Shown here: positions 6,310-56,701 of the stretch, in pieces | How the letters are laid out: every line of letters starts with the position of its first letter | Position numbering within the stretch: the stretch's first letter is position 1 | Source of the DNA: Octopus sinensis | Lineage: Eukaryota | Length of the DNA: 64,000 bases | Reading direction: 5' to 3' | NCBI RefSeq assembly: GCF_006345805.1 | Contig: NC_043001.1 | Location: 3,906,001-3,970,000, forward strand | Translations under genes and position numbers: made by a program | The notes under the pieces: generated by a model | Databases searched by the model: none | Seen by the model: only the letters and a program-made list of their open reading frames with translations | What the model was told of the DNA's origin: nothing

Positions 6310-6762
6310 TCTACAGCAAATATTCTACTCAATACCACAGAATTACTTGTCAATCGTTCGATCATAACCAATTGAGCATGTCCCTTAGTGGCTAATGGTA
6401 TGTGCATCTCTAATCAGGAGCAGAAGTACGGGGGTAGCATCATAGCCATGTGTTGAAAGGGATTATGTAGGGTTTGGATAATTCACCTTTGTAAACATGG
6501 CTGTTTCGTTCACCATCCTTAAACAACCATTATTTAGGGACCTTTTGAGCGGGATGGCTACCCGACCTGAAAATTCTAACTGGGCCCCACCAGCAGGGTC
6601 ATGAACTGTTTATCTCGATATCATATCACCGTGTCGTGCACATATGGTTGTGATGTATGTGCCTGGTGTATCCTTATCGGACAGGCAAGTCCTGTTGTGT
6701 ATATTGTGTTTTGTATATTTGTATCCTAGTGTCACTTTATGGCCTGAACTGCTCTCTCACTC
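6310..6762 (+). mobile_element. Non-coding interspersed repeat ending in (AAT)n (family C), 5'-truncated
   Basis: Reverse-complement match over ~450 bp to 16695-17150; ends ctgctctctcactc followed by aataatgataat. Confidence 0.85.
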
Positions 6763-6805
6763 AATAATGATAATGATAATAACAACAACAATAATAATAA
6801 TATAT

Positions 6806-7160
6806 ATTTCTTTACTACCCACAAGGGGCTAAACATAGAGGGGACAAACAAGGACAGACAAACGGATTAAGTCGATTACATCCACCCCAGTGCGAAACTG
6901 GTACTTTATTTATCGACCCCGAAAGGATGAAAGGCAAAGCCGACCTCGGCGGAATTTGAACTCAGAACGTAACGACAGACGAAATTGACATTTTGGCGGG
7001 GAGAGGACTAGTCGATTACATCGACCCCAGTGCATAACAGGTAATTAATTTAACGAGCCCGAAAGGATGAAGGACAAAATCAATCCTGGTGATATTTGAA
7101 CTTAGAACGTAGAGACAGCCGGAATACCTCTAAGCATTTCGCCAGGCGTGCTATCATTTC
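6806..7160 (-). mobile_element. Family A tRNA-SINE, tandem partial dimer
   Basis: Two successive body copies (cccgaaaggatgaa, atttgaact[c/t]agaacgta); tail A at 6806-6870 and a partial tail B at ~6988-7015. Confidence 0.9.
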
Positions 7161-9932: not shown

Positions 9933-11143
9933 TTTCACGCCTTTTGTTCTTAGGTTGTTTCGCAACTTTTCAATTGTCTTCTCAATTGTCTCATCTCTGA
10001 ACACGTTCCAATCACTATCAATGGATAGCTTGAAGCAAACCAGCGACAACACTCTGACACACTGCAAACTTTCTCGTCTAGTTTGATGCTTAAAAGTAAA
10101 TGATGTAACTTTGCAAGTAATTTACTTCGTATTATTCCGTATTACTCCGTATTGCTTCGTATTCACCAATTATTTCCCATTGTTTTGTCAATTTAATATG
10201 TTATTGTTATCTTCCTTTCAGTTCATCACGGAACGTTCCGCTAATAATAGTCATTATTGTGATTAATATTATGTATAATAATTTCTTTTCATTTAAAACT
10301 TGAGTAGGTTCATAGAACGGGGTGGGGGTGGGGGATAGTGGAAGAGAGTAAATTAGATTCAAGTGACACAATATATTACTGGTGGGAATATTCGGGAGTA
10401 TTCAGAGAAAGACAATGGCACCTCCCCTGGGGTAAGAAAAACACGTTGAACCCAAAATATATTAACGGACGATTTCGTGACGCTAGTGCTATGGAAATAA
10501 ATACACGTACATAAAAAGGAACACATACATACAAACATATATACATACGTAACTACATATATAAATACATAAATACATACATATACGCATGTATAACTGA
10601 AACTATTCGACATTAGTGTAGCTGGCATTGGTACACATGCGGCAAACTGGCAGACTCGATAAAGTGTTGGATGAAACATCATTCAATATTCAATCCGACT
10701 CTGTGCCGTTTCGGTTCTAATCCCGCCTAAGTGGGCTTTGCCATTCATGGTTTCGGAGATGACCAAATGTACTGCTAACAAGATTCTAGTGGTTCCTCTA
10801 CTAACAACAACAATAACTTCATAATGATGAGGAAGGCGACGGCGACGATGATGATGGAGATGATAAAGATGACGACGACGACGACGACGAATAGGAGTAC
10901 GACGTTGAAGACAGATTCTCCGACAATTTCGTAGACGTGTATTGGGGTCTTCGCTCAACTGATTTACCTATGCGGTGAAATATGGTGTGGGGTGACTGAG
11001 TATCCCGTAGACATGAGAAAACTTAATCTATTCTGAAAGAGAGTCAGTGTTATGTCGCATTCGACAAAGCTGAACTTTTGAATCCCTGGGTCATTTCTAT
11101 GGACCGCCTCCCAAGTATTTTCAACCTGTTCCTTTACATTATC

Positions 11144-11363
11144 TATTTCTTTACTCCCCACAAGGGGCTAAACACAGACAGGACAAACAAGGACAGACAA
11201 ACGGATTAAGTCGATTAAATCGACCCCAGTGCGTAACTGGTACTTATTTAATCGACCCCGAAAGGATGAAAGGCAAAGTCGACCTCGGGGGAATTTGAAC
11301 TCAGAACGTAATACCGCTAAGTATCTCGCCCGGTGGGCTAACATTTCAGCCAGCTCGCCGCCT
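11144..11363 (-). mobile_element. Family A tRNA-SINE, near full length (tail A)
   Basis: The minus strand reads aggcggcgagctggctgaaatgttagc...ctgagttcaaattcc (B box)...gcctttcatcctttcggggtcgatt...tttagccccttgtggg. Confidence 0.9.
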
Positions 11364-12186: not shown

Positions 12187-12605
12187 AAGCGGCGAGGAGC
12201 TGGCAGAAAGGTTAGCACGCCGGCCGAAATGCTTAGCGGTATTTCGTCTGCGGCTGCGTTCTGAGTTCAAACTTCACCGAGGTCGACTTTGCCTTTCATC
12301 TTTTCGGGGTCGATAAATTAAGTACCAGTCTCGCACTGGGATCGATGTAATCGACTTAATCCGTGTGTCTGTCCTTGTTTGTTCACTCTGTGTTTAGCCC
12401 CTTGTGGGTAGTAAAGAAATAGGTATTTCGTCTGCCGTTACGTTCTGAGTTCAAATTCCTCCGAGGTCGACTTTGCCTTTCATCCCTTCGGGGTCGATAT
12501 ATAAAGTACCAGTTACGCACTGGGGTCGATGTAATCGGCTTAATCCGTTTGTCTGTCCTTGTTAATCCCCTCTGTGTTTAGCCCCTTGTGGGTAGTAAAG
12601 AAATA
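12187..12605 (+). mobile_element. Family A tRNA-SINE with tandem duplication of body and tail
   Basis: Head gagctggcagaaaggttagc, B box gagttcaaa, central gcctttcatcttttcggggtcgataaattaagtaccag, tail to gtagtaaagaaata (12421); the body restarts at ggtatttcgtctg and runs to 12605. Confidence 0.92.
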
Positions 12606-13636
12606 AGTTAAGTAGAAGCGATGATCACTGCCAGAATGTCCTTTACTCATGCATCGTTTTATTTAGATTCGATCTGGAAATAAAAGACAAGAATAGGAAC
12701 AATACAAGATGGCCACTATAGCCTGCAAAACCAGTTGCATTTTGCGGCAGCAGTAGGAAGGCCAGCAGCTTACAAAGTGTTGTGTATGGCAACTCTTAGA
12801 AGATACTTATCTGGAATTAGTGTGAGAAAAGTAAAAGCGAACCATTTGGGTATTAAAACGGTTTCTCAAAAGATTTTGCTCAAAAGTTATAAAGACCGAC
12901 TGTAAATGTCAAACTTTTAAATTCTATGCAAACATTTCTTGAGATCCTAGGAAATTCACGGATCCGATAGCATCTTTGGTAGGCTTCCAACTGTCTATGA
13001 CAGACTCTAAATATTAAATATTTCGGAGATACGCTATTGATATTAAGTTTAAAATATTTAATATATCTTTCATCTCTATCTGCAATACATCACTTAACGG
13101 AATTCTTAAATCAATTCTATCTCTTGTGAAAATATTCTATCATATTCTTGGCTATTTACGTTATTCACGGATGAATTTCGGACCAGAATTTATTGTATCA
13201 AAATGGCGTTTAGTTTCGAGCATAATTAGATATAAAGTAACTGAGGCGAACGGAAACAGAACTAACTCAAAATAAAGTATAAATGTAAATGTATTCCTAA
13301 GTATTCAATAAGACTGAGGGGGAAATGCCCCGATGTGGGCAGAACATGCTAAATAGAAATATATGGGAAGTTTTAATCGCAGTATTATAATGAAAAAGAG
13401 AGATTTAAAAAAAAATGTCTAAGCAAAGAGTAAATAAAACAACCTCGTAAGATGCTTTTTATCTGAACGCAAATAAAGGCAAAAGATGCAATTTTATTTG
13501 GTTAACTATATGGAAGATACAGAAGATTCTGTATTAAAAAGCATCCACTCTTTACTGATAACTCACAAAAACATCCTGACGTCTTATTAAGACTTCTCAA
13601 GAGAATATTTAACTTGTCACAACTATTGTTGATCGT

Positions 13637-15030: not shown

Positions 15031-16227
15031 ACACATATATATGAACTAGGAGAATTCCCTTTTTTCTTACTTCCAACCTTATTATTACCAATATTCAATT
15101 CAGTAAACTACCAAAGGTTTCATTCCCCGTGTAACTGACGACTTCAAAATTTCGTAATTGCTGTCAATTTTTTTCCTTGCAAAGTTATGATCATCATCAT
15201 TGTCGTCTTCGACATTATTATTACTATTGTTGTTTTTCATGTTGTTGTTGTTGTTGCCTTTGCACAACTTCTAACGCTGGAGATGTACTACAGTGTCAGC
15301 TGGTCCCTACCAGTGAACTAAGGTAACATATCTTAATGATGTCACCATCATTGGCTTCTGTTTCATTACCACCGTTATTCACAATATTTTGTGTTTTCAT
15401 TGTCCCTCATATGAGGTAGCGGTTATCAGGTTGAGCAATTACCAGTGATTTTATCGTGACACCATCATTTGATGTATCATTAATCAGCCCGTAAGGAGAC
15501 TCCACCCGTTTCCTTTCATTATTATTATCATAATCATCACTGATATCAATGCTATTATTGTTTTTATGTGTAGTATTAGCACTAGTTGCAGCAGCAGCAA
15601 CAATAGCAGGGCTGTGTGTGCTGGTTAGTGTGGTAGTTGGGCCTCAGATTCCTGTGCTATCATAGTAGTAGTAGTTGTAGTATTATTGTAGTATTAGTAG
15701 TATTTAGTAACAGTAGCTGCAGCATATTATCATTATTTTTTTTTCCATTATCACCATCAGCACCACCATCATTTTAGTAGAATAGTTGGGCAGCAGATTG
15801 GTGAATAGATCATAATGTACAGCTCAGCGTGGACGGACGCTAGTCAAATGGGCTCCACGTAGGTTGGCCACTTTTACATGTTTAAAACTCCTTCTTATCA
15901 AATATTTTGTTTTTAATCTTTGTGCAAAATCATTCACTAAAAAACTTGAGAATTTTTCACGTATAATTCCGCCCCTGTATGGGCGAAATTACCAAACTTT
16001 TTCAAAACTTTCGCGATTTTTTAGCCAATATATATCGCACACATTTTATTTGATTTGTGTAAAAAAATCATATACATTGTTCTAAGAAATAATTTATTTA
16101 ATTTCTTTAAAATATTCTTTTATTTTATTCTGTAAAATCAACTCATTCGTTAACCAACTCATTTGCATACGCGCAAGTCGTTGTAGGATCGACTACTTAC
16201 GACTAGCTAGCGCGCACCGGGTCCAGT

Positions 16228-16228
16228 C

Positions 16229-16299
<71 letters not shown>

Positions 16300-16382
16300 T
16301 AGTTTTATTTTTATAGCGTGCTTTCACTTCACTACCGAGCGCAGCTCTGTGTGCCTTGAGCATGTGCTGTGATTTGTTGTGA

Positions 16383-16691: not shown

Positions 16692-17251
16692 ATTATTGAG
16701 TAAGAGAGCAGTGCATGCCACCAAAGTGACACTGGGGTAAAATATACGAAGCCCAGTATACCTATCATGACTACCCGTCTAATAAGGGTACACCAGGCAC
16801 ATGCATCACAACAATATGTGCACAACATGGTGATCTCATATCAAGATAAACAGCACATGACCTTGCAGGTGGGGCCCAGTTAGAATTTTCTTCTGGTCGA
16901 GTAACCCATCCCGCTCAAAAGGTCCCTGAATAAGGGTTGTTTAAGGATGTTAATCGAAGCACCCATGTTTCCAGAGGTGAATTATTCAAATACCTAAGAA
17001 TCCCTCTCAACACACGACTATGATGCTCCCCAACCACTTCTGCTCGTGATCATAGGTGCACATATCGTCAGCCACTAAGGGAGATGCTCAACTGGTTAAG
17101 GTCAAACAACTGACAAGCAAATCTGTGGTATTCAGCAGAATATTTGCTGTAGTCCATCTTTAACACCAAGACAAAACAATGTACCTGATAACACTTGCAA
17201 TCAGTTAAGATCAGAAGACACGAGAGCCACTGTCTCGTATTGCATCAGGGC

Positions 17252-17353: not shown

Positions 17354-18169
17354 TATATATATGTATGTATATATATATATATCTACATACCTATCTACCT
17401 ACAAACGTACCTACCTACGAACCGACATACCAACCTACAAAAAGTACGTACGTACGTACCTGCCAGCCTACCTACCTACCTATGTACATACATACATAAA
17501 TACATACATACATGCATACATACACATACATAAATGCAGAAATACATGCATACGCATACAGAAAAGTAATAAAAAGTAAATGCGCTTTTACATGTTTATA
17601 TCATTGAATTCTTTCCAAAGTATATTAAGTCAGTGGAATAATTTCAAGACACAATAAAATGCATTGAATTGAAGACTGATTACCACAATCAAATTCTTTC
17701 GAAAGTCTTTATTACATATTGCGATATATTTGTATCAAATCCAAAATACATTTCTACAATCAAATTATTTCAAGATTATGGATTCCAAATTACATCCAAA
17801 TAATCTCTAAATATCTTATTAACCTTTTCAATATCCATGATTACAAAAATACATCAAAGTTCATAATTTCAAATTGATTTCACTTCCAGCCCTCCCAATG
17901 CTCATGTTCAATGGCTTTCTACTTGCCTTCCTTTCACATCCGCTGAGGGAAGTAGAAGTTGCCTCATTGCAGATTCACTACGCTAGAAGGGAATCATACA
18001 GATTACGTTATTAAATCCAAATGGTGCAGGGAGGTAAATATTTGTACTTTTACTTATTCAAAACTATAAGAAGGTATAATAAAGTTCTATCTTTAAGAGA
18101 TGAGGAATTATGAACATTAGTTACATTATTTACCTTTGATGGATATTTGTCCTCATCTTCTTTGTGGTT

Positions 18170-18215
18170 AAGACAACGTTTCGGCTGATGTACCATTCAG
18201 CCTTCATCAGGTGTC
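18170..18215 (-). ncRNA. Minimal type I hammerhead ribozyme motif (family H inverted arm)
   Basis: The minus strand reads GACAC-CUGAUGA-A-GGCUGA(augguaca)UCAGCC-GAAA-CG-UU-GUCUU: intact core, 6 bp stem II, palindromic stem III. The 3' strand of stem I deviates from the GUGUU of the other copies. Confidence 0.7.
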
Positions 18216-18329
18216 TCGGGAAATTTCGAACCTGGGTTCTCATTCCCAAAGCATAGTGGTTAAGAGCGCAGGCTACTGACCCCAAGATTCCGAGTTCGAT
18301 TCCAGGCAGTGTCCTGAATAATAATAATA

Positions 18330-18361
<32 letters not shown>

Positions 18362-18368
18362 AGTAATG

Positions 18369-18405
<37 letters not shown>

Positions 18406-18409
18406 TAAC

Positions 18410-18495
<86 letters not shown>

Positions 18496-18550
18496 TACTA
18501 ACATCGAAAAATACCTTAGGAATGAGAACCCAAGTTCGAAATTTCCCCAA

Positions 18551-18596
18551 GACACCCGAGGAAGGCTGGAGGGTATATCAGCCGAAACGTTGTGTT
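18551..18596 (+). ncRNA. Hammerhead motif with mutated core (family H copy 1)
   Basis: GACAC-CCGAGGA-A-GGCUGG(aggguata)UCAGCC-GAAA-CG-UU-GUGUU; CUGAUGA is changed to CCGAGGA. Confidence 0.6.
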
Positions 18597-18799
18597 AACA
18601 ACAAACAAGATGAGGACAAATATCCGTAAATGTAGATAATGTAAATGATATATAAGAGGGTATATACCTGATGAGTCTTAGAAAATAAAGTAGAAGCAGG
18701 TGCCAATGTTAGGTTAATGATTGAAATCGCTTTTCTATTTTACTATTAAAACGTTTCTTTTATTGTTTCATTGTTGTTTTTATCATATTTTCCGCATAT

Positions 18800-21750
18800 A
18801 AGATTCGAAGTCTTATAGTGCTGGGAAGACGCATTTGTGGGACAACGTATTTATGACGTAAATTAAGTTTCTGAAAGACATCAAACGTTATGTTTAAAAC
18901 TTTTTTTCCCCGTTGTTGTAATCGGACTCTGATCCTACAGATATATTGATCCAAATTCCACAAATTTTAGCCGTCAGATTTTGTGTAACGCTGATAGTAG
19001 TTGGACAATTGTTGAAGATTTCTACTGAAAATGTTACCATTTTATACCTTACAATACATTTTTTATTTATTTTTGTAAGATTCTCCTTAATCTAACAATT
19101 TGAAATTGCATTTAATTGCATTAAACGCCCCAGTCTTCTTAGAATTGCAGAATGACATGTAAGCTGAAACGTTTGCTGCGGTTTCGGTTTTTACTCTTCT
19201 TAAATCACTGATCTCAGGTGCGTTGCTTGTAGACATTAGATTACATTAATAATTAATGATACTTTGATGCATATTCTTTTTGTTAGATTGCACGGCTATT
19301 AACTCTCGTGTGTTCTGGCTTCCATGAACTAAAATGGAAATATTGCCTCGAGTCGAATAGTTTATTATATATATCTGCCTTATTTCTAATTTGTTTCGTT
19401 GTATTACTACTAAACATAAAAATCACGATTTACCCCTGCTATATTTTATAGAGAAGTTGCATGGCCCAGTGGTTAGGCACTCACGATCAATAAATGGTGG
19501 ATTCGATTCGCTGACTGGGCGGCGCTTTATGCTCTTGAGCAAAACCTTCGTCTCACGTTGCTCCAGTCCCCCTTTTGATCAGGGAGGAATGTTGGCCTGT
19601 TCACCTGGCCAGCTGGGAGGCCAGCGGGAAGGCTGAAACAATACAAAACGCATTGTAACCAGCGATGTACAACAACATCTGATAGCCTGGTAGGTCACGT
19701 GATATTCCATAGTATATGGAATATTCTTGTTAATACTATTTCATGATTGTTTTGCAATCAAAAATCTTATCTCCAAGCTCTCTCCATGATATAAAACAAT
19801 CAATTCTCTAAATTCCCTTGAAGTAATTCTGAAAATCGTTTGATTGTTCAACCTGGATATACCATTTATTCTGTTATTAAATCGTATCCAATTACAAAAT
19901 ATTGGGGTTATCGGGATCCCTGTTAGGTTTCAATTCCTTTTGCTATATATCCTGTGGTCGAAATTACGAAAAAATATTTTTTGAAGTAACTGACGAGCTT
20001 CAAAAATACATTCCTATTTGTTATTTAGGAAATATACTGAACCCAAAACGTTTCGCTCCCATTCCATATTCAATCGGCATATTTGAATATCAAAAGAAAT
20101 TATGAATGATTCTTCATTCATTGTACATGACAGATGGCTCGACATATTCATGTAATCACTTATGTAGCTCTGATGTGCTTCAGATAATACTTTAGTATTA
20201 TGTCTAAGAATTCTTCAATCAGTGCATTTCAGAAAAGGTCCTGCCACAGATTTATTAAAATTTTTAATCTTTTGGATGAAGGTGATTTACGTAAGAACAT
20301 TAGAATCCTTTACAAGTATTGTTTATAAATTTACTTCTGTGGATTTTTGCTGTCCAGTCACGTTGCTTGATTACATTTAAAATCGGTTAAGTACTCCTAT
20401 TCTTCGTCAGCTAACCCCTTTTTGTATAAATTGAATCGGGCGTTAAATTTTTGTAATATTTTATGCGCACTTTTCACAACTGCTCTTCTGGTCAACTATG
20501 GCAAAATTTTGATAGAATTCTATACCCGTTGCACCTACAATTCTTCCTTTATTAGCTTCATATACAATCAGTTTTGAATCGGTTAAAATGCATTAATATA
20601 CTCTCATTCCATTGTTGTGAATTTTTCACGTACCCTTTGTATTTGTAGGTATCCAGTTGCAAAATATGATCCGAAAACCTATCACGTTCACTGTCTCTAC
20701 CTCTTTGTACATAAGGTTTACTTTTATTTCTGACGAGAGATTCGAAATCGCAAGCCTCATTAAGCATCTCATCTGAAAGTCTTAGGTTTGTAATATTTTT
20801 ATATCATTTGTCTATGAATTTCCTGGAATTGGCGTAAATTTAAGTTTTTGGAAATGTTGTTATTGTTGTATTGACTGCAATAAAAAAATGTTGGTGTCTC
20901 GTGTTTTGGTCATTCCAGCTGGCATCCTTGTTCCTTTCGACGGGATCTAAAAAGTAGTCATGAAAATAGTTTCGTAGATTTGATATATTTCTGCATTCAT
21001 TACTCTAAACAAAATAGTTAAAGTGGCTGTCATGATTCCTTGCAATCTTGCTTCTCTTGTATCTACTTCGAAAGTGCGTTCTCCCACAATAATCTTCTAA
21101 CGTATTTCTCCTATAATTCTATTTTCATTACTGTAGAAACTTATTAGAAACAATAGGATATTCATTTCTGGATAATAGAAGATTTTATTCGTTGAGTAAG
21201 ATGCCACTCTGTATCTAAGCTGGTTTCCGTTGAATTCATACCGGGGTCGGTTTCAATTAGATTCAGTTTTTGTATTTCTATTGCTTTTCAATGTTTGATC
21301 ATTGTTCCATTCCAAATTTATAACGCTTGGTTCATTGGTGTTTGTTCTATGGCTTCTGCATATAGCTTAATTTCAGTTCTTTCATGAAAAAGATTTTCTG
21401 AAGAATGTTCTTTTTTGAAATTATTCTTCCCCACTTCTTTTATCTCATCTTTAATTTGAAATAATCATTTTCCCATTCTTATTTCCACAGTTTGTAAATG
21501 TTTTCATAACGAATTCCTTCCGCCTTCTTATATAATTCTACAGATATTCCTTCAGCAATTGTCTTATATTTCTCTTCATTAGTAGTTTATTTTATACTTA
21601 ACAAATCTCCATCCTTTCTAAACTTATCAATAAATTGTCTGTCTTATGTTTGTCTTTGTTGTTCTTCTTCATCTTTAATTGGTCTGATTTGGAATATTCT
21701 AGGAAGAATTATAGGTTTTAAATTAATTCTCCTCGTGTTCTGAAGGCAAG
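18800..21750 (-). pseudogene. Decayed Penelope-like element (RT + GIY-YIG endonuclease), interrupted by a SINE
   Basis: Minus-strand broken frames give, in the correct order: EYLTDFKC..KIHRSK (~20335-20400), FLDIILK (~20190-20212), SYISD, ISFDI (~20085-20100), RQYFHFSSWKPEHT..NLTKRIC (~19268-19350, RT thumb) and NLIYVI (~18850-18870, endonuclease). The outer boundaries are approximate. Confidence 0.8.
19453..19705 (+). mobile_element. tRNA-derived SINE (family B) nested in the PLE fossil
   Basis: A box tggcccagtgg, B-box-like gattcgattc, central cttgagcaaaacc...cacgttgctccagtcc; related to 34783-35081. Confidence 0.75.
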
Positions 21751-21974
21751 AAAGACTCGACTAAATACGCAGTTACATAGATTTGCAGTAATACGGTGAC
21801 CACATTTTAAACTTTTCCTGTTATAGGAATTTACGGAAAGTAAGCAAAGAATCCACAAAACAAGAAAAAACTTTCTTATTGTAAAATGTAAACCCATTTT
21901 AAATCATTAACTAAAAACTGTCATCTGTATCTATCCCATTTTCTAAATGGCTGTTAACTGACAGAGTTGCTACC

Positions 21975-22160
21975 GCGCCGGGAGAACTGCATAGCAGCAT
22001 TTCGTCTGTATTTCTGTTCTGAGTTCAAATGCTACCAAGATCGACTTTATTTCTCTTCCTTTAGGGGTTAACAAAATAAAAACTAGTTGAGTAGTTGGGT
22101 CGATGTAATTGATTTATTCCATTCCCCGAATTTTCAGACCTTGAGTTAAATTTTGAAACC
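21975..22160 (+). mobile_element. Decayed family A SINE (tail B)
   Basis: catttcgtctg...gttctgagttcaaat...tcgacttt...tcctttaggggttaacaaaataa...gggtcgatgtaattga...ccccgaattttcagaccttg. Confidence 0.75.
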
Positions 22161-24077: not shown

Positions 24078-24229
24078 AAGTTGTGATGAGATTTAGGCAC
24101 AATGATGCAAAGGTCACTGGTTGGAATCGAACTCGGAACCGAACTCTTAATCACTACACCTTATGCACGTGGTTAAGAACGTGGGCTACTAACCACAAGA
24201 CTCCGAGTTCGATTCTAGGCAATAATTTC

Positions 24230-24275
<46 letters not shown>

Positions 24276-24287
24276 GTGATAATGATG

Positions 24288-24341
<54 letters not shown>

Positions 24342-24343
<2 letters not shown>

Positions 24344-26162
24344 CGGGTATAAAATGTTTGATAAAAATATAAATCATCTCGTTTACATGGATGATTTAAA
24401 GCTGTTTGCAAAAAATGATCAACAACTCAAGGGCTTACTAGCGATAGTCAAACAATTCAGTGACGACATCAGAATGCAATTCGGCCTCGATAAATGTGCA
24501 AAGGCTACCTTTATCAAAGGAAAAATGACAGAAACATCTAACGTTAACCTTGACCAACAGAATGTCATAAAAGAACTAGACCCAGCGGAGAGCTACAAGT
24601 ACCTAGGGGTAATTGAAGGGAACGGAATAAGTCATTCAGAGATGAAGGAAAGGATCAGGAGAGAATGCTATCGAAGAGTGAGAGCAATACTCAAGACAGA
24701 GCTGAATGCAAGAAACAGGATCGAAGCAATCAATGCATTAGCTATACCAGTCGTAACTTACAGTTTCAATATTGTTAACTGGTCAATTACTGAAATATGT
24801 CAGCTCGACAGAAAAATAAGGAAACTGTTAACAATGCATAGAATGCACCACCCTAAGGCAGATACAGAACGACTCTATCTGCCAAGAAAAGAGGGAGGCC
24901 GTGGTCTTTTGCAACTGGCAATAACAATGAAGATTGCTACAATTGGCCTAGACACCTACCTGAAAAACTCTGAGGACTGGATGTTAAAACTTGTCTCAAA
25001 ACATGAAAACAAGAAAGCATCATACTCAGTCACAAAACAGGCAAAGGAATATCTAAGTGAATTCCGAATACAACCAATTTCGGAATTAGAGATAGATATA
25101 CAAGAAACAAGCACAGAAAAAGCTAGGCGCATGAAAACCCGTGCCAAAACTGCGGCCTTAGATATTCTGAATAATAAATGGCAAGAAAAACTATCTATGG
25201 CAAATACCCAAAGAGAGCGAATAATGCAGATATCGACAAAGCCCTGACCCATCAATGGCTAATGGCCTCTGGCTTAAAATCTGAAACAGAGGGGTTTATC
25301 ATAGCAGCTCAAGATCAATGCCTACCAACAAGAAACTACCAGGCCAACATATTAAAGATCAGAAGCAGTCCAACGTGTCGTGTATGCAAGCAACAAAATG
25401 AAACCATTGACCATGTGGTCTCCAAGTGCAGTCTTCTAGCGCCTACAGAGTATCTCAACAGGCACGATAGAGCTGCACAATATATTCACTGGGTAATCTG
25501 TAAAAACCTGGATTTGCCCCATGAAAAAAAACTGGTGGGAACACAAACCACCCCCAGTGCTTGAAAATGACCACATCTCACTCCTCTGGAACTTCACCAT
25601 TCAAACTGACAGGAAGATAGATGCAAATAGGCCAGACATCATATTGAAAGACTTCAAACAAAGAACATGCCTCCTCATTGATATGACTGTACCAATCGAT
25701 ATAAACGTATCTGTCAAGACCTACCAAAAACTGAGCAAATATAAAGATCTTGAAATAGAAATCAGCAAAATGTGGAAGCTGAAGACTAAAACAATACCTG
25801 TTGTCATAGGTGCCCTGGGAATGATAGCAAAAGGGGCTGATAGCTACCTAACTCAGATACCAGGAAACCCAAAAATGGCAGAAGTTCAAAAGATAGTGTT
25901 CATGGGAACTGCTCATATCCTACGCAAAATACTCTCTATGTAATCTCAAGGTTTAAAACAAACATAATTTTCGGTTTAAAAAAAAAAAAAAAAAAAACTT
26001 TTTTTTTTTTTTAGACATTCATTAGTACAACATCCCCACCCCCCAAATATATGGCACACTAGGCATAACAACAACATGAACTTCCAACCCTGTTGTCTCT
26101 TGAGGTCTCTGGGTGAGACTTGGAGCCAACTTGTACAAATATAAAGCAAAAGTCAAACATAG
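24342..26162 (+). mobile_element. R4/Dong-clade non-LTR retrotransposon, family A, 5'-truncated and frameshifted
   Basis: RT motif YMDDLKLF, thumb YKYLG/GGRGL, CCHC CRVC..ETIDHVVSKC, RHD and restriction-like endonuclease RPDII..LIDMTVP..K.SKY across three frames to the stop at 25943; 3' UTR followed by (AAT)n; (AAT)n on both sides. Confidence 0.93.
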
Positions 26163-26246
26163 AATAATAATAATAATAAATATAATAATAATAATACCAT
26201 CCAAAAATACCTTAGAAATGCGGACCCAGATTCAAAATTTTCTCAG

Positions 26247-26292
26247 GACACCTGATGAAAGCTGGAGGGTATATCAGCCGTAACGTTGTGTT
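26247..26292 (+). ncRNA. Hammerhead motif (family H copy 2), GAAA mutated
   Basis: GACAC-CUGAUGA-A-AGCUGG(aggguata)UCAGCC-GUAA-CG-UU-GUGUU. Confidence 0.6.
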
Positions 26293-29248
26293 TACAAGAA
26301 ACAAGATGAGGACAAATATCCCTGAAGGGTAAATAATGTAGATAATGTACATAATTCCTCATCTCTTAAATATAGAACTGCATTACAATGATGCTAACAA
26401 ATGGATTAGAACTCAATGTAAGTTACTGAAATAAACTCATAGTGATATATAATGTGCATCCGAGTTTAAAGTCGTTGGCTATTCTGCTAATTAGGTTGTG
26501 AAAACACAATATATTTGGAAGAAGAAGAGTGATCCTGAGAGGGATATTTGAGTATATTTCTTATTGCAACTAATTAGGAACCATGAGAATTATGAAATGT
26601 TACAAATACATTTCAGATTTGCGTTCATAAAGTTTGAAACCACAAAATCAAAATTCAAGACACAAATGGTGGAATATGTAAAAATAAAGAAATGTTTAAA
26701 GAATCACAGAAATAAAGGAAACAGTCTTAAAATTAATAAACCTCCAATGGATGCTATCTTGTCTGCCATGCATCGAATTTCATCCTAATCCTCATTCGGT
26801 GCGACAGAAAAGCGTTTAACATTAGACAGATGTAGAACTAAAATCAACCGTGTTCAGTATTATGAAAATTTACACGAAACAATTCATTAATATATATGTA
26901 CATAGATACAAATGGATATATGTGTTTGTGCGAGTGTATATGTATGTGTGTGTATGTGTATATGTGTGTGTGTGTGTGTGGTACTTATATGCATATAAAC
27001 ATAGGTAAAGAAATAAAGCCTGTTATCGAGATCATTTGAGCAATACCGAAAGTGTCAGCTCGTTTCGATACCAACATCTGACATCATTTTCCCACTATGT
27101 AGCGGAATGTCAAGAAATTGCCCCTAGAAATTAGAGGACGACAGATAAAAATGTGTCAGGATTAAACATTCATCTTACTTTCAAAATGTCATGATGAGGA
27201 CTGTTATTGACGCCAGATTCTATAACTACTACTAGAAATTGTCGTTTAGCAGGAATGTTCATGATATTATCAATATCATGAAAGCTATTTTTGCCATTCT
27301 AAATTCATGAGATGCTGCTGGGAATATTGCAAGCATTTTTCTTCTAAAGTGTCCTAGATTTCCATCAAGTGTCATGGAATTGTGCTATATATTAATAATG
27401 TATAACTCTATTTGCTTTAAACATCTTAACTGAAAAAAAAGAAGAACTCGTGAATCAATAACGCATGGCGAAATGACTCTTCTGGATCCTGTGAACCAAT
27501 TGTATCAGCGCCTCTGCTTGTATTGTTGGCGATAACAATGGCAGAGAGTTCAAAACCTATTCAGAATTGACAGAATCCAAGCTGAAAATGAAATTCACCT
27601 GAGCCATGCAGCGCATAGGAACTTGATGTACGAATATAAAATCAATAAATATCTTGTTGAAATAACAAGTAAACGTAAGACATAATGACAAGAGGAATAC
27701 AATAGATTGAAGAAAGATAGTAAGCAATATATCCTGTTGGGGTGTTGGAGAATTAAGTTAAAGAATCTCATGTGAAGGATGTTTTTGGAAACAGAATCAA
27801 CGTAAATGGATACACTTATCAGGATACCACACTATGTCATTACATCTTTAATCAGTCTTAAAATGTAGGAATAGTGGGCTGCGATTAATTGTCTTCGGTA
27901 CAAAATCTACAGCTAGCAGGGTGGGAGCAAATTCTGGCGTTATGCAAATCATGTTTGGACTGAATAAGTTAAGGAGAATGGCAACCTTTAGGGCGCTCAT
28001 GCTGTTTCGTTAAACCTGCAATGCTCTACGACTAGGAGCTTAACGACCATCAGGTAAAATTAACTGATACGTTTTCTAGATAACAGTCTATCTTTCTTAT
28101 AAATTTAGCCTCAAAACAAGATTTCAAAAAGTACTTATAAGTCAAGAACCAACTGCAATTGTTTTTCTTTTTTTGTTTTTATTTTTCTCGTTGGAAGGGA
28201 TCCATGATTAGCGGTGTTCGTCATTTTTGTGACAGACACAACATCCATAGGTACGCATTATGCAATATTTCAAGGGTTATCTTTGAAATGGTGTGGAGTT
28301 ACGTGTTCGCTATTCAACTGTTACGTCTAGCAGGTCGACTGGGCCGCTTAAGGCTTCTTATTGGGTCGAGATAATAAAAATGGCACATTTGGGGATACAG
28401 TGGTTTCATTTTCAAATGGTAAATGTTAGGAGGAGCATCGAGCATTAGAAATGTTCGCGCTTGTTCTCACAATATCCAAGTTTTCTTATATGATCTCACA
28501 TATCCCTCCATGAAAATAATGACAACATACATAAATATGAATTTGACAAAATCTGTAAATCTATTTGAAATATATTTAATCCATACAGCAAAGTTATAAT
28601 AACTAAGTTTCATTCTGCTGTTTCTTTCATTTCCGAAAATAAAACGTGCAAAGGTATAGCTTTGAAGGAAAGCTATGAAATATATCTAGTGACCAGAAGC
28701 ATGGATCTTGAGCAATAATTGAAATTTAATATCATGAATTTGTGGTAAATACCACAGAGTGCAACTATGAAGCGAGAGGGTTAACAGCAATTTAACATGA
28801 TTTTACTTCATTAATGTCCTCAAGGAAAAGTATGAATGACAACATTATCCTATCATTTCCAGCGTTCTTCTCCAAATACCAAGTTTCCTATCGATATAAA
28901 ACGTTCTCATTATCATGGATGAACCATCATGTAATAAATGCGAACATGTAATAAAGGATTTTCTGTGCATTTATCTGATTGTACGTACCTATAAATACAG
29001 AGCCGCTTCTCAATAAACACACACAAGAACAGGAGTAAAAAGGGTAAATGATTATGCATATGGATATGTGTGTATATGTGTATAGGTACAACGTATACAT
29101 GTGTGTGTGGTATATGTATATATATGTATAACTATATATATGTGTGTGTGTGTGTGTATTTATCTACCTGTCTATCTACATATCTATCTACCTGCCTATC
29201 TATCTATCTTTCTACTTATCTATCTATCTATCTATCTATATATCTATA

Positions 29249-48614: not shown

Positions 48615-48889
48615 ATCAAAATAAGCAAGGATTTATATGGATAATACCATACACAATTCTGGTGCCTTTGACATAAGTACCATATTCATCTGAATCTAAA
48701 TTTTGCTGAACTTATAATACCATACCTTGTGTATAAATATATATAATATATATATATTATATATCCAAGTAGTCATGACAAAATCATTGTTAACATAATA
48801 CGTGAAAAGTCACCGGAGGTTTGTTAAAGCAATTTGCTGCCATGGAGTAGAAATGATATCATAAATTGCATTCATCAAACTTTATAACA

Positions 48890-49086
48890 CAGTTCTATAT
48901 TTAAGAGATGAGGAATTATTTGCATTATTTACTTTATTTACATTTGACATATATTTGTCCTCATCTTGTTTGTTGTTAACGCAACGTTTCGGCTGATATA
49001 CCCTCCAGGCTTAATAGCATATGGCGTAGTGGTTAAAAGCGCGGGCTACTAACCCCAAGATTCCGAAATCGATTCCAGGCAGTGAT

Positions 49087-49176
<90 letters not shown>

Positions 49177-52100
49177 ACACACAAGGGGCTAAACACAGAG
49201 GTGACAAACAGGGACAAAAGAAGCCACAAAAGAAGCTGGATACTCACCCAAACCCGCCCAAACAGGAGTACCACCACCCAAACAAACCCTGTGGATAAAT
49301 AACATCCAAAGCAAAATAAAAAAAATTAGAAAAGACCAGTCGATTCTTAATGAATTCAGCAAACAATCAACGCTACTGAGCAATAAAAAGAGAACAAAAA
49401 TACTCCGCAAATATAACATCACAGAGAAAGATTTGCCTGAAATAAAAGAAAAGCTGAAGCAAGATATCCTTGCCAAAGCACAAAGGATCCGCCGGTACAA
49501 GAAACGCCAACGCTTCTTTGAAGAAAACAAAAAGTTCAACTCTTACCCCAAAACGTTCTACCAAGAACTGGGAAAAAATAAAATAGAAGTCACTGCAGCA
49601 CCAACGGCAGAAGAATTGGAAGAATTCTGGGGAGAAATATGGTCGGCGAACGAACCACCAAAAAAAAGGAGTATCAGAATAACAAACTCGGCATCTGAAC
49701 AACTTTGGACCCCCATAACAACTGAAGAGGTCACCCAGGCACTGCAAAAACTAAGCAACTGGAAGGCACCTGGGCATGACAAGATCCCCAACTTCTGTTG
49801 AAATATATCTACAGGAATGCACAAAAAGCTGGCTGAAAACTTTAACAACGTACTAGCAGAGCCAGAGACAATGCCTGAATGGCTCACGAAGGGGAAAACC
49901 ATCTTAATTCCCAAATCAAATGAAACAGCAAAACCAGAAAACTACAGACCAATAACCTGCCTCCCTAATATGTTCAAGGCATTTACTGCAGTGATATCAC
50001 AAAGACTGAACAAGCACCTGGGCGAAAACAAACTGTTCCCAGAAGAGCAGAAGGGATGCCGCAAAGGCTCATATGGCCGTAAAGATCAACTAATGATTAA
50101 TAAAGCCATAACTGAAGACAGCCACAGAAAGAAGAAAGGCCTCAGTATGGCCTGGATTGACTACAAAAAGGCGTTTGATAGCATCCCCCACACATGGATC
50201 CTCGAAACACTAGCCATTAACAAAGTAGCACCAACAATCATAAAATTCATAGAGCACTCTATGAATAAATGGCAAACAGTCCTACACCTCCAAACAAAAG
50301 AGGGACTCATGAAAACCAAAGACATCCCCATTAGCAGAGGAATATTCTCGGGAGACACGCTTTCTCCACTCCTTTTCTGCTTGGCACTGTCACCTCTATC
50401 TGATATGCTAAATAGAACTGGATGCGGATATAAATGTTACGGCAAAACGATCAGCCACCTTTTATATATGGATGACCTAAAACTATACGCTGCAAATGAC
50501 AAACAGCTGGAAACACTATTAAAGATAGTTCATGGATTTACCAAAGAAATAGATATGAAATTTGGATTAGAAAAATGCGCCAAAGTAACCCTGAAAAGAG
50601 GAAAACTAGTTAAGAGTAACAACATCACACTAGATAAAACCAATGAAATAAAAGAATTAGACCAAAGCCAAACTTACAAATACTTAGGAATCCATGAACT
50701 AGATAAGACATAACACACACAAATGAAAGAGAAAATAAAAAAAGAATATTATAGACGAGTTAGATCAATACTAAACACAGAGCTCAATGCTAAAAACAAG
50801 ATAATAGGTATCAACACTTTAGCTGTCCCAGTTATAAGTTACAGCTACAATATCCTTAACTGGACACGAAATGAACTGACCAAAATAGATAGGAAAACAA
50901 GAAAAATAATGACAGGATCTAGGATGCATCACCCAAAATCTGACATAGAAAGACTATATATACAAAGCATAGAAGGTGGTAGAGGCCTTATACAGCTGGA
51001 AAACTACTATAAAATAACCACCATAGGACTGCAAAAATATCTACTTCAGAAGGAAGGAAAACTGATCCAGATAGCGGCAAAACACGAGCAAAACAAAAAA
51101 ACTGTTCTCAGTATTTAAGGAAGCTGACAAATACAAACAAGAAATCATACCACCCAATAAACGTGAAGAAGAAGAAGATGAAGAAACAACAAAAGCTATA
51201 AAACAAATGAAATCCAAACTAAAAATAGAACAGCAACGAACCATGACAAAACGATGGCAAGAAAAGCCCCTTCATGGTAAATACTGCACTAAACTAAACG
51301 CAAAAGAAATAGACAAAGAAAAATCCCAGCAATGGTTGAGAAGCTCAGGACTCAAAGCAGGAACAGAGGGATTTTTAATTGCAGCACAAGACCAAAGCCT
51401 CCCCACCAGAAATTACCAAAAACATGTAATGAAAAGAAATATTACAAGTAACTGCAGAATATGTGGAGATGGACAAGAAACAATAAATCATATTATCTCT
51501 AGCTGCCCAGTCCTTGGCTAAGAAGGAATATATTCACAGACATGACAGAGTTGGAACCTACATACATTGGAAGCTATGCCAACATTATGGAATAACAACA
51601 GAAAAAAGATGGTATAGGCACACACCAGAAAAGGTCACAGAAAACGAGAAAGCAACCATACTCTGGGATATGCCGATACACACAGATAGAGAAATTAAGG
51701 CCAACAGACCAGATATAGTTGTCAGAGATCATGAAGAAAAAAAATGCTTTCTAATTGATGTATCAATACCGGCTGATGACAACGTGTCTCTAAAAGAAAT
51801 GGAGAAACTCTCAAAATACAAAGACCTGGAAATAGAGGTAATTAGAATGTGGAATCTGAAAACAGAAACAATTCCTATCATAGTAGGTGCATGAGGCATG
51901 ATAAAAAATATTCAGACAAATACATAACAAAAACACCAGGACTTACAAACACATATAACATACAGAAAATTGCACGACTAGGCACTGCACACATCCTACG
52001 CAGAACACTTTCCATACAATAACCATCAGAGCATCACAACAAATCACAGCACATACCCAAAGCACACAGAGCTGTGCTCGGTAGTGAAGTGAAAGCACGC

Positions 52101-52282
52101 TATAAAAATAAAACTACTGAACAATAATAATAATAAAAACATCGAAAAATACCTTAGGAATGATAACCCAGGTAAGAAATTTCCTTGAGACACGTCTTTG
52201 AAGGCTGGAGGTTTTATCAGCCGAAACGTTGTATTAACAACTAGCAAGATGAGGACAAATATTCGTCAAACGTAAATAATGT
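48890..52282 (+). mobile_element. Family H element copy 3, split by a Dong insertion
   Basis: Inverted 3' arm 48890-49010; complete tRNA-like head 49017-49089 (tggcgtagtgg A box); (AAT)n 49090-49173; Dong insertion; short (AAT)n; 3' region 52138-52282 with a decayed hammerhead. Flanking repeat atcaaactttat at 48874-48885 and 52283-52294. Confidence 0.88.
49217..52120 (+). mobile_element. R4/Dong-clade non-LTR retrotransposon, family B, 5'-truncated, with stops and frameshifts
   Basis: NWKAPGHD, YRPITCL, EQKGC, WIDYKKAFDS, GIFSGDTLSPLLF, YMDDLKLY, YKYLG, CRIC..ETINHIISSC, RHD and RPDIV..LIDVSIP; the ORF end is at ~52022, then a 3' UTR and (AAT)n. Confidence 0.95.
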
Positions 52283-52789
52283 ATCAAACTTTATTATTCA
52301 TACTTCCCAATGGCTTTAAAAGATGAAATCTTTTCTTATTTGAAACCTCGGTAGAGATGGGGTTATTTTCCTATCGGAATTTTCCGGTAGACGCTGCTAA
52401 TATAAATATTTCTGGAGCTAAATGCCTCCATCTAACTTACTGTTAACATACACATCAGCACATGAAAAACACACACTCATATACTAACACATATAAACAC
52501 AAACACAACACAAGCAAACACACATGTACACACAAAATACCAGTGGAGATTTATATATGAAAATGGATAGTACATATATCTAAACAATGCTGAATTCACA
52601 CGCGCTGATTACTTGGAGGAATGGTGTTCGTCTACATTTTGGATAAAACATACATATATTTCTATATTTGTAGCAGTATATGCATATAAATGTGTGTATG
52701 TATGCTCATATATATATATATATATATATACAGAGAGAGAGAGAAAGAGGAGGAGGATAGAGAGATAGGGGTAGATCGGTTGATAAATG

Positions 52790-55355: not shown

Positions 55356-56701
55356 GTGAGGAAGGGAGGAGAGATGGACAATGGACAAAGTTGCGCACCG
55401 GAAGCGATAAAAGGAATGAGTGCTAGAACCCTGGAGGTGGAGGAGGTGAAAATTGATGCGGGAAGGAGGAGGAAAGGGAGAAAATTTGTAAAAAAGAAGG
55501 GAGTTAGTCTAGGGCTGATTCCCGCAGAAGAACGGATGAAAAGCATAGCGAAGAGAACGGTAGTATACAGAATGTTGTCTCTGTCCTCGAACAAGATAGA
55601 GTTCACTCCAACAGAAAAAATAGAGGAATGTCTCGAAAATGTTTAAAAAATTGACCACATTCTATGCACGTGGAAAAAAGTATGGCTCAGTGGAAGTAAA
55701 GTTGGCAACGAAGAAGATGCCATAAACCACTCCACGGACCCGTTACGGACAACGACATGGATACTACTTCCGACGTACTGAGGAAAACGAGTTGCCAGTG
55801 TCAGAGATGGAAGAGTACCCCTCGAAATCGATGAAGAATGGCTGGTAGCTGCCATAATGCACGATATGAAAGATGGGGTAGAGATCTTCAAGATAACGAG
55901 GACCCCAAAGGCCAATTGGTAGGGATATAGCCTTGAAGTGACCATGCATGTATCTTTGGAAGTTTTGCATGTTATAACGGAGGAAGTAGTATTTCCGGAA
56001 GACGCTGGACTTCGAAAGCAGTAGAGGGAGGACCACCAACATGCTTCTTATGCGGCAGGGGAGGGCACATAAAGGCGGGATGTCCCGAGAAGGAAGGCGA
56101 GGAGGAGAGGAGAAGTGAAGAAAGTGATACCTGGGAGGTAGTAACAATAAAGGAGACACATAGAGTGGAGGAACCCTTCACAGTAGTAAACAGGAGGAAG
56201 AGAAAGGAACGGGTGAATTCTCCCTCAGACTGTAAAAAAAGACTAAAAGAGATTGTGACGAAAGAAAATAGAAATAGGTGTGAAGCACCAACAGAAGCAG
56301 TAGTGAAAGAAGGCTCACTGGAAAAAGCAGCATTACAACAGGGAGAAAGAGGAAGTGTTTATAAAATTGGTTGTGATGTTTCTGCACACCCGAACACATC
56401 AGGACGGGAGCCGAAGCAAGCAGAAGTGAAAAGGAAGAGATATAAGTGGCATTTGGTCAGGTATTCCAAAAGTAAAGAAATAGAGAAAACGATTGTAAAA
56501 TAGAAATCGGTAATAAGAGTAAAGCAGCCGCCAGGAGAATACCTGGAATGCACTAAAGGAATAGTCATAGATAAAGAGGGATTTTTGAAACTGAGAGAGA
56601 TGTATGGACTTTTCATAGAGACGCTGGGGGTTGAAGTCGAGTTTGACGAGCTCCTGCCGGTCGTGGAATTAGAAGATTTGAAACCCTTTATGAACATTTA
56701 A
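55356..56701 (+). pseudogene. gag/ORF1-like pseudogene with a CCHC zinc knuckle, followed by an A-rich tract
   Basis: 56042-56083 translates CFLCGRGGHIKAGC (C-X2-C-X4-H-X4-C), preceded by VEGGPPT as in L1/Tx1-type ORF1; followed by a charged low-complexity region; several stops and frameshifts; A-rich tract 56726-56813; no RT or endonuclease is visible. Confidence 0.75.

Follow-up and report, generated by a model that had tools for sequence, protein, structure and literature searches.

The locus

The window, by which we mean the whole 64,000-nucleotide stretch of Octopus sinensis DNA analysed, contains three copies of a repeat that we call family H (Table 1). The original prediction was that every copy carries an inverted extra arm inside a target-site duplication (TSD) of 12–14 bp, with a few extra bases between the repeat and the element. 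The TSD lengths and the extra bases (four in copy 3 and four in copy 2) were confirmed, and copies 1 and 3 do possess the inverted arm. Copy 2 agrees in part: its left arm, taken for a partial head, is the whole head in inverted orientation with an internal gap, and it starts at neither of the two arm start sites described below; left arms normally bear the tail.

The span 48874–52294 proposed for copy 3 is indeed bounded by a TSD, but 2.95 kb inside it belong to an unrelated LINE. Copies 2 and 3 are each interrupted by a long insert. By their sequence, both inserts appear to be Dong/R4-like LINEs; they have no relationship to family H, inserted afterward into the AAT tracts, and possess RT, CCHC, and restriction-like endonuclease motifs. 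The insert in copy 3 has stops and frameshifts and belongs to a young family (relatives 98–99% identical) in which the 3′ end is followed by AAT at 19 of 20 loci; over 134 residues it shares 55% amino acid identity with the insert in copy 2. TAA repeats are the reported target of Dong, of the R4 clade (PMC3812793), and the nested LINEs, assigned by motifs, likewise sit in TAA repeats.

Table 1. Features of the three family H copies (positions are those of the window).
Feature	Position	Strand	Remarks
Copy 1 left TSD	18065..18078	.	13/14 match to 18651–18664
Copy 1 inverted full-tail A arm	18083..18249	-	hammerhead core ~18173–18215
Copy 1 B arm	18251..18648	+	head from +10, AAT tract, tail ~33 nt short
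Copy 1 right TSD	18651..18664	.	13/14 match to left
Copy 2 left TSD	24099..24111	.	12/13 match to 26385–26397
Copy 2 left arm	24111..24168	-	whole head inverted, ~17-nt internal gap, no tail
Copy 2 A arm	24169..24341	+	head from +15 and AAT tract
Copy 2 second LINE	24342..26162	+	5′-truncated, putatively Dong/R4-like; family different from copy 3 LINE
Copy 2 AAT remainder	26163..26384	+	full tail to 26380, then 4 extra bases
Copy 2 right TSD	26385..26397	.	12/13 match to left
Copy 3 left TSD, 12 bp	48874..48885	.	ATCAAACTTTAT, exact repeat of 52283–52294
Copy 3 extra bases, 4	48886..48889	-	3/4 match presumed element continuation past tail
Copy 3 inverted A arm	48890..~49012	-	full 3′ tail; truncated inside hammerhead
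Copy 3 tRNA-like head (+3 to +75)	49017..49089	+	A-box/B-box motifs; start of forward B arm
Copy 3 AAT tract of pLTR, 5′ part	49090..49174	+	
Copy 3 later LINE in AAT tract	49175..52119	+	putatively Dong/R4-like RLE LINE, unrelated
Copy 3 AAT remainder and B-arm pLTR tail	52120..52282	+	ends ~40 nt short of tail end; contains start of PLE ORF
Copy 3 decayed hammerhead	~52189–52235	+	within B arm
Copy 3 right TSD	52283..52294	.	exact repeat of left TSD ATCAAACTTTAT

The putative coding element

Family H, which numbers roughly 50,000 insertions, is very probably the pseudo-LTR (pLTR) of an autonomous Penelope/Poseidon-type retrotransposon, with mirror copies that likely arise by priming on both strands at cuts 12–13 bp apart. 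The pLTR unit (tRNA-like head, AAT tract, minimal hammerhead, and tail, in that order) lies on both flanks of an 838-codon RT and GIY-YIG frame. The majority frame has two stops, both in its low-coverage part, and carries the motifs DKG, YVDD, and the CxxC/H..H of the endonuclease. In the translation, read by eye and with no Pfam match to this domain, the C-terminal GIY-YIG endonuclease displays the CCHH signature as VYSIPCSCGRLYKGET, then two His and the conserved R/E; one fragment of the ORF matched RVT_1 below the cut-off.

The head stands directly downstream of the ORF at 27 of 30 ORF-selected loci and at 17/20 in another set, and there are two near-full-length copies, L068 (which starts at head +1) and L074. 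The pLTRs lie direct or inverted relative to each other, with the tail at just one end and a TSD. RT homologues are 56–69% identical (E-values down to 1e-104), and one of them shares the hammerhead-coded N-terminus of the ORF. A genome search with two related proteins led back to family H in all 20 mapped loci, and the hits of a further search mostly fell on those places again; relatives were found neither in metagenomes, with one protein as the query, nor in viral contigs.

The hammerhead fits the published min-HHR (PMC4209133) in its core, the extra base after A9, the G10.1–C11.1 pair, the 5-bp helix I, and the palindromic 15.2–16.2. Rfam gave no hammerhead or tRNA match on copy 1 or the L068 head, and only microsatellite-driven matches on the whole window. 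When the tails were folded as single strands, the hammerhead fold did not appear, as is expected for a motif lacking helix III. The translation has no zinc-finger linker of the CX2-5CxxC type between RT and EN; such a linker is the criterion that separates Neptune and Nematis (PMC8557442), and its absence excludes those two groups. The ORF, the GIY-YIG domain, the missing linker, the pLTR layout, and the minimal hammerhead together mark the element as a probable EN+ PLE of Penelope/Poseidon type. The original prediction did not identify family H as the element's own pLTR.

Survey of insertions

We sampled 92 family H insertions from the genome and used 552 flank-swapped junctions as the TSD control. 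The tabulation bears out the inverted arm as a recurrent feature, with an inverted tail arm in 52/92 and any inverted piece in 60/92, but not as a feature of every copy: 32/92 are without an inverted piece, and just four of those 32 carry a TSD. Some copies that look single hide inverted ends of 10–14 nt (L137 and L024), and of seven insertions in a further 400 kb of genome, sampled at arbitrary places, 5/7 had an inverted arm or piece. A junction TSD score of at least 8 was reached by 46/92 insertions versus 36/552 controls, and a score of at least 10 by 36/92 versus 13/552. TSD length ranges over 8–17 bp, with a mode of 12–13 (19/41). The extra bases at junctions often, though not always, match element sequence just past the tail, and arms often extend 1–5 nt into the ORF continuation there.

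At paralogous empty sites the TSD is present once. For the three window copies, no paralogous empty sites were found in 1.54 Mb of genomic DNA, with query slices about one base off. No orthologous empty site was found for copy 1 among four organisms: contigs of two span both junctions, a third spans the left junction, and the fourth is uninformative. In arm pairs not selected by pattern, a lineage marker is carried by both arms in 9, by one in 1, and by neither in 21 (p=5e-7). The single TSD in empty paralogues and the marker common to both arms point to one insertion event per locus, in line with the original prediction.

Arm start sites and a proposed insertion mechanism

Arms can be sub-divided into A arms, which start at the tail end and hence have the full tail, and B arms, which start 24–46 nt inside. 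Of 38 TSD-bounded two-arm insertions, 37 pair one of each; in a wider set without the TSD check the figure is 78 of 91 head-to-head pairs, the other 13 comprising eight without a full tail and five with two. The B arm reaches farther into the element in 22 of the 38 pairs and the A arm in 13, with three ties; examples of a longer B arm (A versus B) are L164, with 45 versus ~850 nt, and L024, with 14 nt versus 1.1 kb. Each arm, therefore, often has sequence absent from the other, and neither is a simple fold-back copy.

Insertions lie head-to-head inside the TSD at sites resembling the symmetric target AAC-N12/13-GTT, with the same motif at both nick half-sites. GT follows the nick in 34/82 half-sites versus ~4 expected, on the A- and B-priming sides alike, though the rule used to trim TSDs is biased towards a G immediately behind them. 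The fixed pair of start sites and the shared half-site motif support the earlier suggestion that both ends of a staggered break primed reverse transcription.

We propose that the element protein would cut both target strands 12–13 bp apart and that both cut ends would prime reverse transcription. A dimeric protein would use two internal start sites, one per strand, on RNA of one source lineage, and the inner ends of the two cDNAs would then be connected, in many cases where the head has short palindromes. If priming takes place in the 5′ pLTR, synthesis would run off the RNA 5′ end at around −7 to +1 relative to the head; this would account for the predominance of pLTR-only copies. Two-end priming, as we infer it for family H, would fit the mirror layout. 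The weaker step is that an internal Pol III promoter located within the head may initiate the RNA.

The tRNA-like head and transcription

That the tRNA-like head is part of the coding element is a new observation. Its A and B boxes stand at exact tRNA numbering (8–19 and 53–62), though ARAGORN and Rfam did not recognize it as a tRNA, and a search for the source tRNA returned just five heads with a duplicated B box and no source. Copy number steps at the 5′ edge of the head, with 4938, 863, and 734 exact 20-mers at +30, −32, and −122, and the truncation hazard is highest at −10 to −1. A 5′ pile-up could also come from palindromes where the head begins, with no transcript start involved.

The sense strand of the majority 2.5-kb ORF has no T4 runs versus 3.2 expected (p=0.018), a lack that is not significant under second-order Markov nulls (p=0.09, 0.16) and that is accompanied by a lack of G4 runs. 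T4 runs are present in all 46 related PLE ORFs tested, none of which is depleted at p≤0.02, and the Dong LINE control has three versus 4.4 expected. The tRNA-like promoter motif together with the absence of T4 runs makes this element a candidate Pol III-transcribed coding retrotransposon, which would be unusual. Going further, one might suppose that an autonomous Penelope swapped its promoter for a tRNA-derived Pol III one, purged T4 from its 2.6-kb sense strand, and spread tens of thousands of SINE-like 5′-end copies, each made by a dimer with one RT start site per strand; we offer this tentatively, as a possible history that is somewhat less likely than not. Our searches of the open literature brought up no paper on a tRNA-headed or Pol III-driven PLE, though this element may figure in the supplementary family lists of PMC8557442 and PMC13282606.

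Alternative explanations

Only one strand might have primed, with the second arm arising when an antisense transcript, or one that was palindromic already, gave rise to snap-back or self-priming, a route suggested for the Penelopes of Adineta (PMC3846280). Derived variants are common to both arms 2.3 times more often than between loci (a value reached in 0/2000 permutations), and several junctions are located on palindromes, as such an origin would lead one to expect; against it, the A arm has ~35 nt missing from the B arm, the B arm is often the deeper of the two, the junctions differ from copy to copy, and both half-sites have the same motif, so we regard it as unlikely. Reading the arms as TIRs of a MITE or other DNA transposon, or as the result of two independent insertions or of later recombination, is highly improbable. 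Inverted ends within a TSD do recall such readings, but arm lengths and inner ends vary freely, the outer ends are unequal, and the parent encodes an RT; family H has neither fixed, equal TIRs nor a fixed TSD length, and the original prediction was right to set fixed TIRs aside. One TSD around both arms and the shared lineage marker also argue against these readings. Two-end priming stays our preferred account of the arms.

For the head, one might envisage a distinct tRNA-SINE, itself non-autonomous, which took its 3′ end from a Penelope and parasitizes the enzyme, since most copies consist of head, AAT, and tail, starting near the 5′ edge of the head, and have the A- and B-box motifs. The head, however, is found in the coding element; no fixed difference separates 47 ORF-linked from 90 head-start arms, lineage variants being common to both (selection by pattern confounds the differences in frequency); and arms often run on into the ORF continuation, which is mostly absent from solo copies. 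Such a lineage, for which there are no diagnostic differences, is very unlikely. A different possibility, with insertion as proposed, is that Pol II transcribes the element from a TATA-like sequence of the UTR; the head would then be a captured relic with no role in producing the coding RNA. As regards the Pol III step only, this could equally well be true. RNA made by Pol III is uncapped and serves poorly as mRNA, which counts for Pol II, as do the failure to recognize the head as a tRNA or trace its source and the TATAAG at −34 to −29, which suits a start near −4. Known Penelope promoters also lie within the pLTR (PMC8557442, PMC3846280). The exact tRNA numbering of the boxes and the T4 contrast with the related PLE ORFs and the Dong LINE favour Pol III.

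Significance

The large sample turns a known PLE footprint into a testable mechanism, a symmetric target with near-obligate pairing of RT start sites. The genomic copies predict that a PLE dimer uses one start site per strand, which can be tested directly in vitro with the purified Anolis protein Poseidon_Ac (PAc). Should the Pol III reading be true, a coding retrotransposon would be transcribed from a tRNA-type promoter, and SINE-like families could arise from within an autonomous element. The ~50,000 loci ought to be annotated as PLE and not as SINE or MITE. Head-to-head arms in introns would presumably form dsRNA, and the AAT tracts of family H supply landing sites for Dong LINEs.

Comparison with known systems

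Octopus SINEs were reportedly described by Ohshima and Okada in 1994. Family H resembles tRNA-derived SINEs in that a tRNA-like head precedes a 3′ part derived from a retroelement, but differs in that the head lies in an autonomous element, the arms are head-to-head, and there is no simple 3′ tail. With the TRIMp3 elements Helenus, Ajax, and Cassandra (PMC10886601) it would share a Pol III promoter of small-RNA origin located within its terminal repeat. The TRIMp3 elements, however, are non-coding LTR elements that have PBS/PPT and 4–5 bp TSDs, whereas family H encodes an RT-endonuclease and would integrate by target priming.

The two-arm layout itself is a known footprint, already published for PLEs. 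Family H shares with EN+ Penelope/Poseidon elements (D. virilis Penelope; Adineta Pen2a_Av, PMC3846280; PMC8557442) a single RT and C-terminal GIY-YIG ORF starting within the pLTR, an inverted 5′-truncated copy, a 30–40 nt tail at one end, a TSD, and a palindrome at the 5′ edge of the pLTR. It is unlike them in the tRNA-like A/B-box head and AAT tract in the pLTR, the lack of a sense-strand T4 run, the TSD mode of 12–13 bp (8–10 bp in Adineta Penelope, PMC3846280), and the tens of thousands of mostly pLTR-only copies.

PAc is a close parallel for the insertion step (PMC11167929): the purified protein cuts both strands and extends them, starting at two sites; these internal RT start sites define the tail, a dimer is predicted, and the ORF start overlaps the hammerhead. 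PAc is not known to have a tRNA-like head. In vitro it showed no strand difference in start site, as opposed to the one-of-each pairing (37/38) in genomic copies of family H, so its behaviour does not explain the strict A/B pairing. The preferred cut motif is ATT in PAc and, by our data, GTT or ATT in family H.

Family H copies in the window

Family H is the pseudo-LTR (pLTR) of a Penelope-like element (PLE) and consists of a tRNA-like head, an AAT tract, a minimal hammerhead, and a tail. The original prediction was that every copy carries an inverted extra arm inside a 12–14 bp target-site duplication (TSD). For copies 1 and 3 this is borne out, as the repeats were located and the full family 3' end lies on the left inverted arm, the forward arm being 33–40 nt shorter at that end. 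In copy 2, the repeat and the inverted head stand, but the head is not partial as first described: on the left lies the complete head in inverted orientation, gapped and tailless, and the forward arm is complete.

Coordinates of family H duplications and other repeats in the window
Feature	Position	Strand	Description
Copy 1 TSD	18065-18078 / 18651-18664		14-bp repeat, one mismatch
Copy 2 TSD	24099-24111 / 26385-26397		13-bp repeat, one mismatch
Copy 3 TSD	48874-48885 / 52283-52294		exact 12-bp repeat
LINE 3' end	16226-16360	-	copy 3's Dong/R4-like family, TAA tract next
Dispersed family	6311-6557 / 16906-17152		inverted orientation; 83–94% alike (range joint with next row)
Another dispersed family	6800-6985 / 11135-11311 / 12241-12614		inverted orientation; 83–94% alike (joint range)
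Two further repeats	19460-19700; 21960-22140		presumably SINE-like, with a tRNA-like or conserved-core look by eye
Open frame	55937-56503	+	CCHC zinc knuckle; resembles ORF1/gag of another retroelement

The kilobase-scale inserts of copies 2 and 3 are distinct LINEs lying in the AAT tract (55% amino acid identity over 134 aa; RVT_1 match), which we take from their motifs to be Dong/R4. AAT follows the 3' end of the copy 3 LINE family in 19 of 20 loci, and its relatives are 98–99% identical, so this family is young. Besides the motifs, the Dong/R4 reading draws on TAA repeats, the Dong target reported in PMC3812793; Dong-R4 is listed among the recently active LINEs of Octopus vulgaris in PMC13282606. 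Gaps of 1.2–2 kb within the AAT tracts of six other genomic copies (L180, L181, L186, L188, L217, and L220) are probably further nested LINEs, and Dong elements may commonly land in the pLTR tract.

Target sites across the genome

An exact 34-mer gave 1551 genomic matches. Our sample comprises 90 loci, all on contig 1, drawn from the first 100 of these in list order (94 matches, or 92 insertions once two second arms were removed); young copies are over-represented in it, and a two-armed copy is twice as likely to be included. A junction TSD score of at least 8 was reached by 46 of the 92 insertions versus 36 of 552 flank-swapped controls. The TSDs are 8–17 bp long, with 12–13 bp in 19 of 41 after removal of five low-complexity or non-adjacent rows. 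Some inverted piece is present in 60/92 insertions and an inverted tail arm in 52/92, whereas 32/92 have none (TSD in four of those); genome-wide, "every copy" does not hold.

The first bases outside the TSD are GT in 34 of 82 half-sites (background 5%), and RTT starts 30 of the 82, although the TSD trimming rule inflates the G of this motif, not the TT. Because GT and RTT are alike on both sides, the target is symmetric, AAC-N12/13-GTT.

Paralogous empty sites hold one TSD copy, as was expected. Two independent insertions (L132 and L213, on G000:C1) occupy an identical 13-bp site of another high-copy repeat; the 34,115 genomic copies of this site (exact 25-mers) have the 13-mer once, and it is likely an insertion hot spot. 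When 44 sites were compared against 1.54 Mb of DNA, eight had paralogues spanning the site, of which five give an alignment across one TSD copy containing 0–2 gaps and three are weak or gappy. For copy 1, an orthologous empty site was sought in contigs of other organisms and none was found.

Two arms from two start sites

Inverted arms bound 38 of the 46 TSD-bearing insertions; the remaining eight, omitted here, are seven whose left end is forward and one doubtful row. Of these 38 insertions, 37 pair an arm beginning at the tail end (A) with one beginning 24–46 nt inside (B). Without the TSD filter, 91 head-to-head pairs comprise 78 mixed, eight with no full tail, and five with two full tails. 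Locus L163 is an inverted duplication including host DNA: its two short-end arms lie 3.5 kb apart, some 40 nt of the adjoining DNA is inverted as well, and a TSD is lacking.

The main rival source of the inverted arms is self-priming, as modelled in PMC3846280. The A arm was not copied from B, because about 35 nt of A are missing in B, and B was mostly not copied from A, because it reaches further inward in 22/38 (A further in 13, ties in 3). Since neither arm is a copy of the other (for B, mostly), two reverse transcriptions are needed. Derived variants common to both arms are enriched 2.3-fold within loci (0/2000 permutations), and a T-to-A change at the free hammerhead-core position occurs in both arms of 9 pairs, one arm of 1, and neither of 21 among pairs not selected by pattern (p=5e-7; 9, 4, and 65 among all pairs). 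Both arms therefore come from one source lineage, which one RNA molecule or two sisters would explain alike. Extra bases at the junctions often match the ORF continuation beyond the tail, which suggests that a pLTR-ORF junction served as template; some of them do not.

The prediction of a single event in which both ends of a staggered break prime reverse transcription holds in our reading, given the two reverse transcriptions, the A/B pairing, and the symmetric target. A dimer would nick both target strands 12–13 bp apart and prime one start site per strand; the two cDNAs would then be joined through their inner ends, in many cases at palindromes of the head.

The parent element and its transcription

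At L024, the end of a reverse transcriptase (RT) and GIY-YIG frame lies directly before the head. Of 30 loci picked by ORF DNA (one being the query and two duplicates), 27 have the head after the ORF, as do 17 of 20 picked by protein. The near-full-length loci L068 and L074 have the layout pLTR-ORF-pLTR, and the start of L068 coincides with the first head base. In its 5' pLTR (L068:690-770), the tail-to-ORF junction stands in three tandem repeats, as if RT had restarted at the A site. The majority frame begins in the tail and has 838 codons (two stops in a thinly covered part), with DKG, YVDD, and a C-terminal CCHH-type endonuclease without zinc-finger linker. Judged by sequence, the parent is of Penelope/Poseidon type by the criteria in PMC8557442. 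Protein homologues reach 69% identity, and one (P0006) shares the hammerhead-coded N-terminus. The tail has a predicted minimal hammerhead that shows the features given in PMC4209133; Rfam did not detect it. A sample of 40 arbitrarily placed 10-kb stretches contains seven insertions, which corresponds to about 48,000 per genome (roughly 19,000–98,000).

A- and B-box motifs occur in the head at tRNA positions 8–19 and 53–62, although ARAGORN, Rfam, and a pattern search gave no tRNA match. Five heads (L374-L378) have the B-box region tandemly duplicated. Counting from the first head base, the ends of 68 of the 133 head-bearing arms lie between -10 and +10, and just 17 arms extend past -10; the truncation hazard from -10 to -1 is 0.066 per base versus at most 0.012 upstream, some ends at -7 being palindrome artefacts. 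Exact CpG-free 20-mers number 4938 genome-wide at +30, 863 at -32, and 734 at -122, falling 5.7-fold across 62 nt and 1.2-fold across the next 90 nt. Short and ORF-linked arms (90 versus 47) have no fixed differences, and so the data do not support a separate SINE lineage.

Runs of four T (T4) are absent from the sense strand of the majority ORF, against 3.2 expected from synonymous shuffles (p=0.018), an absence not significant under Markov nulls; G4 runs are also absent (p=0.27). Individual decayed copies have 17 T4 runs in 39 kb, and the nested LINE control has three versus 4.4 expected. Among 80 related metagenome-contig loci, 46 have an open frame of at least 1.2 kb. T4 runs occur in all 46, at 0.48–27 per kb, with no frame depleted at p<=0.02; as far as sequence past the frame was available, no A/B motif occurs there in any of them. 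These results fit Pol III read-through of the whole unit, which is opposed by a TATA-like element at -34 and the difficulty of translating uncapped RNA. That Pol III transcribes the coding RNA is thus a possible, if somewhat doubtful, reading of these sequences.

Comparison with known elements

Inverted pLTRs, a one-sided tail, and TSDs are published PLE features (PMC8557442 and PMC3846280). Poseidon_Ac of Anolis (PMC11167929) cuts and extends both strands, prefers ATT, is a predicted dimer, and begins reverse transcription at two internal sites, which define the tail, with no strand difference in start site. None of the papers listed by the literature searches describes a PLE with a tRNA-like head or driven by Pol III; repeat databases may already catalogue the family. 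The nearest idea is TRIMp3 (PMC10886601), which differs in being non-coding.
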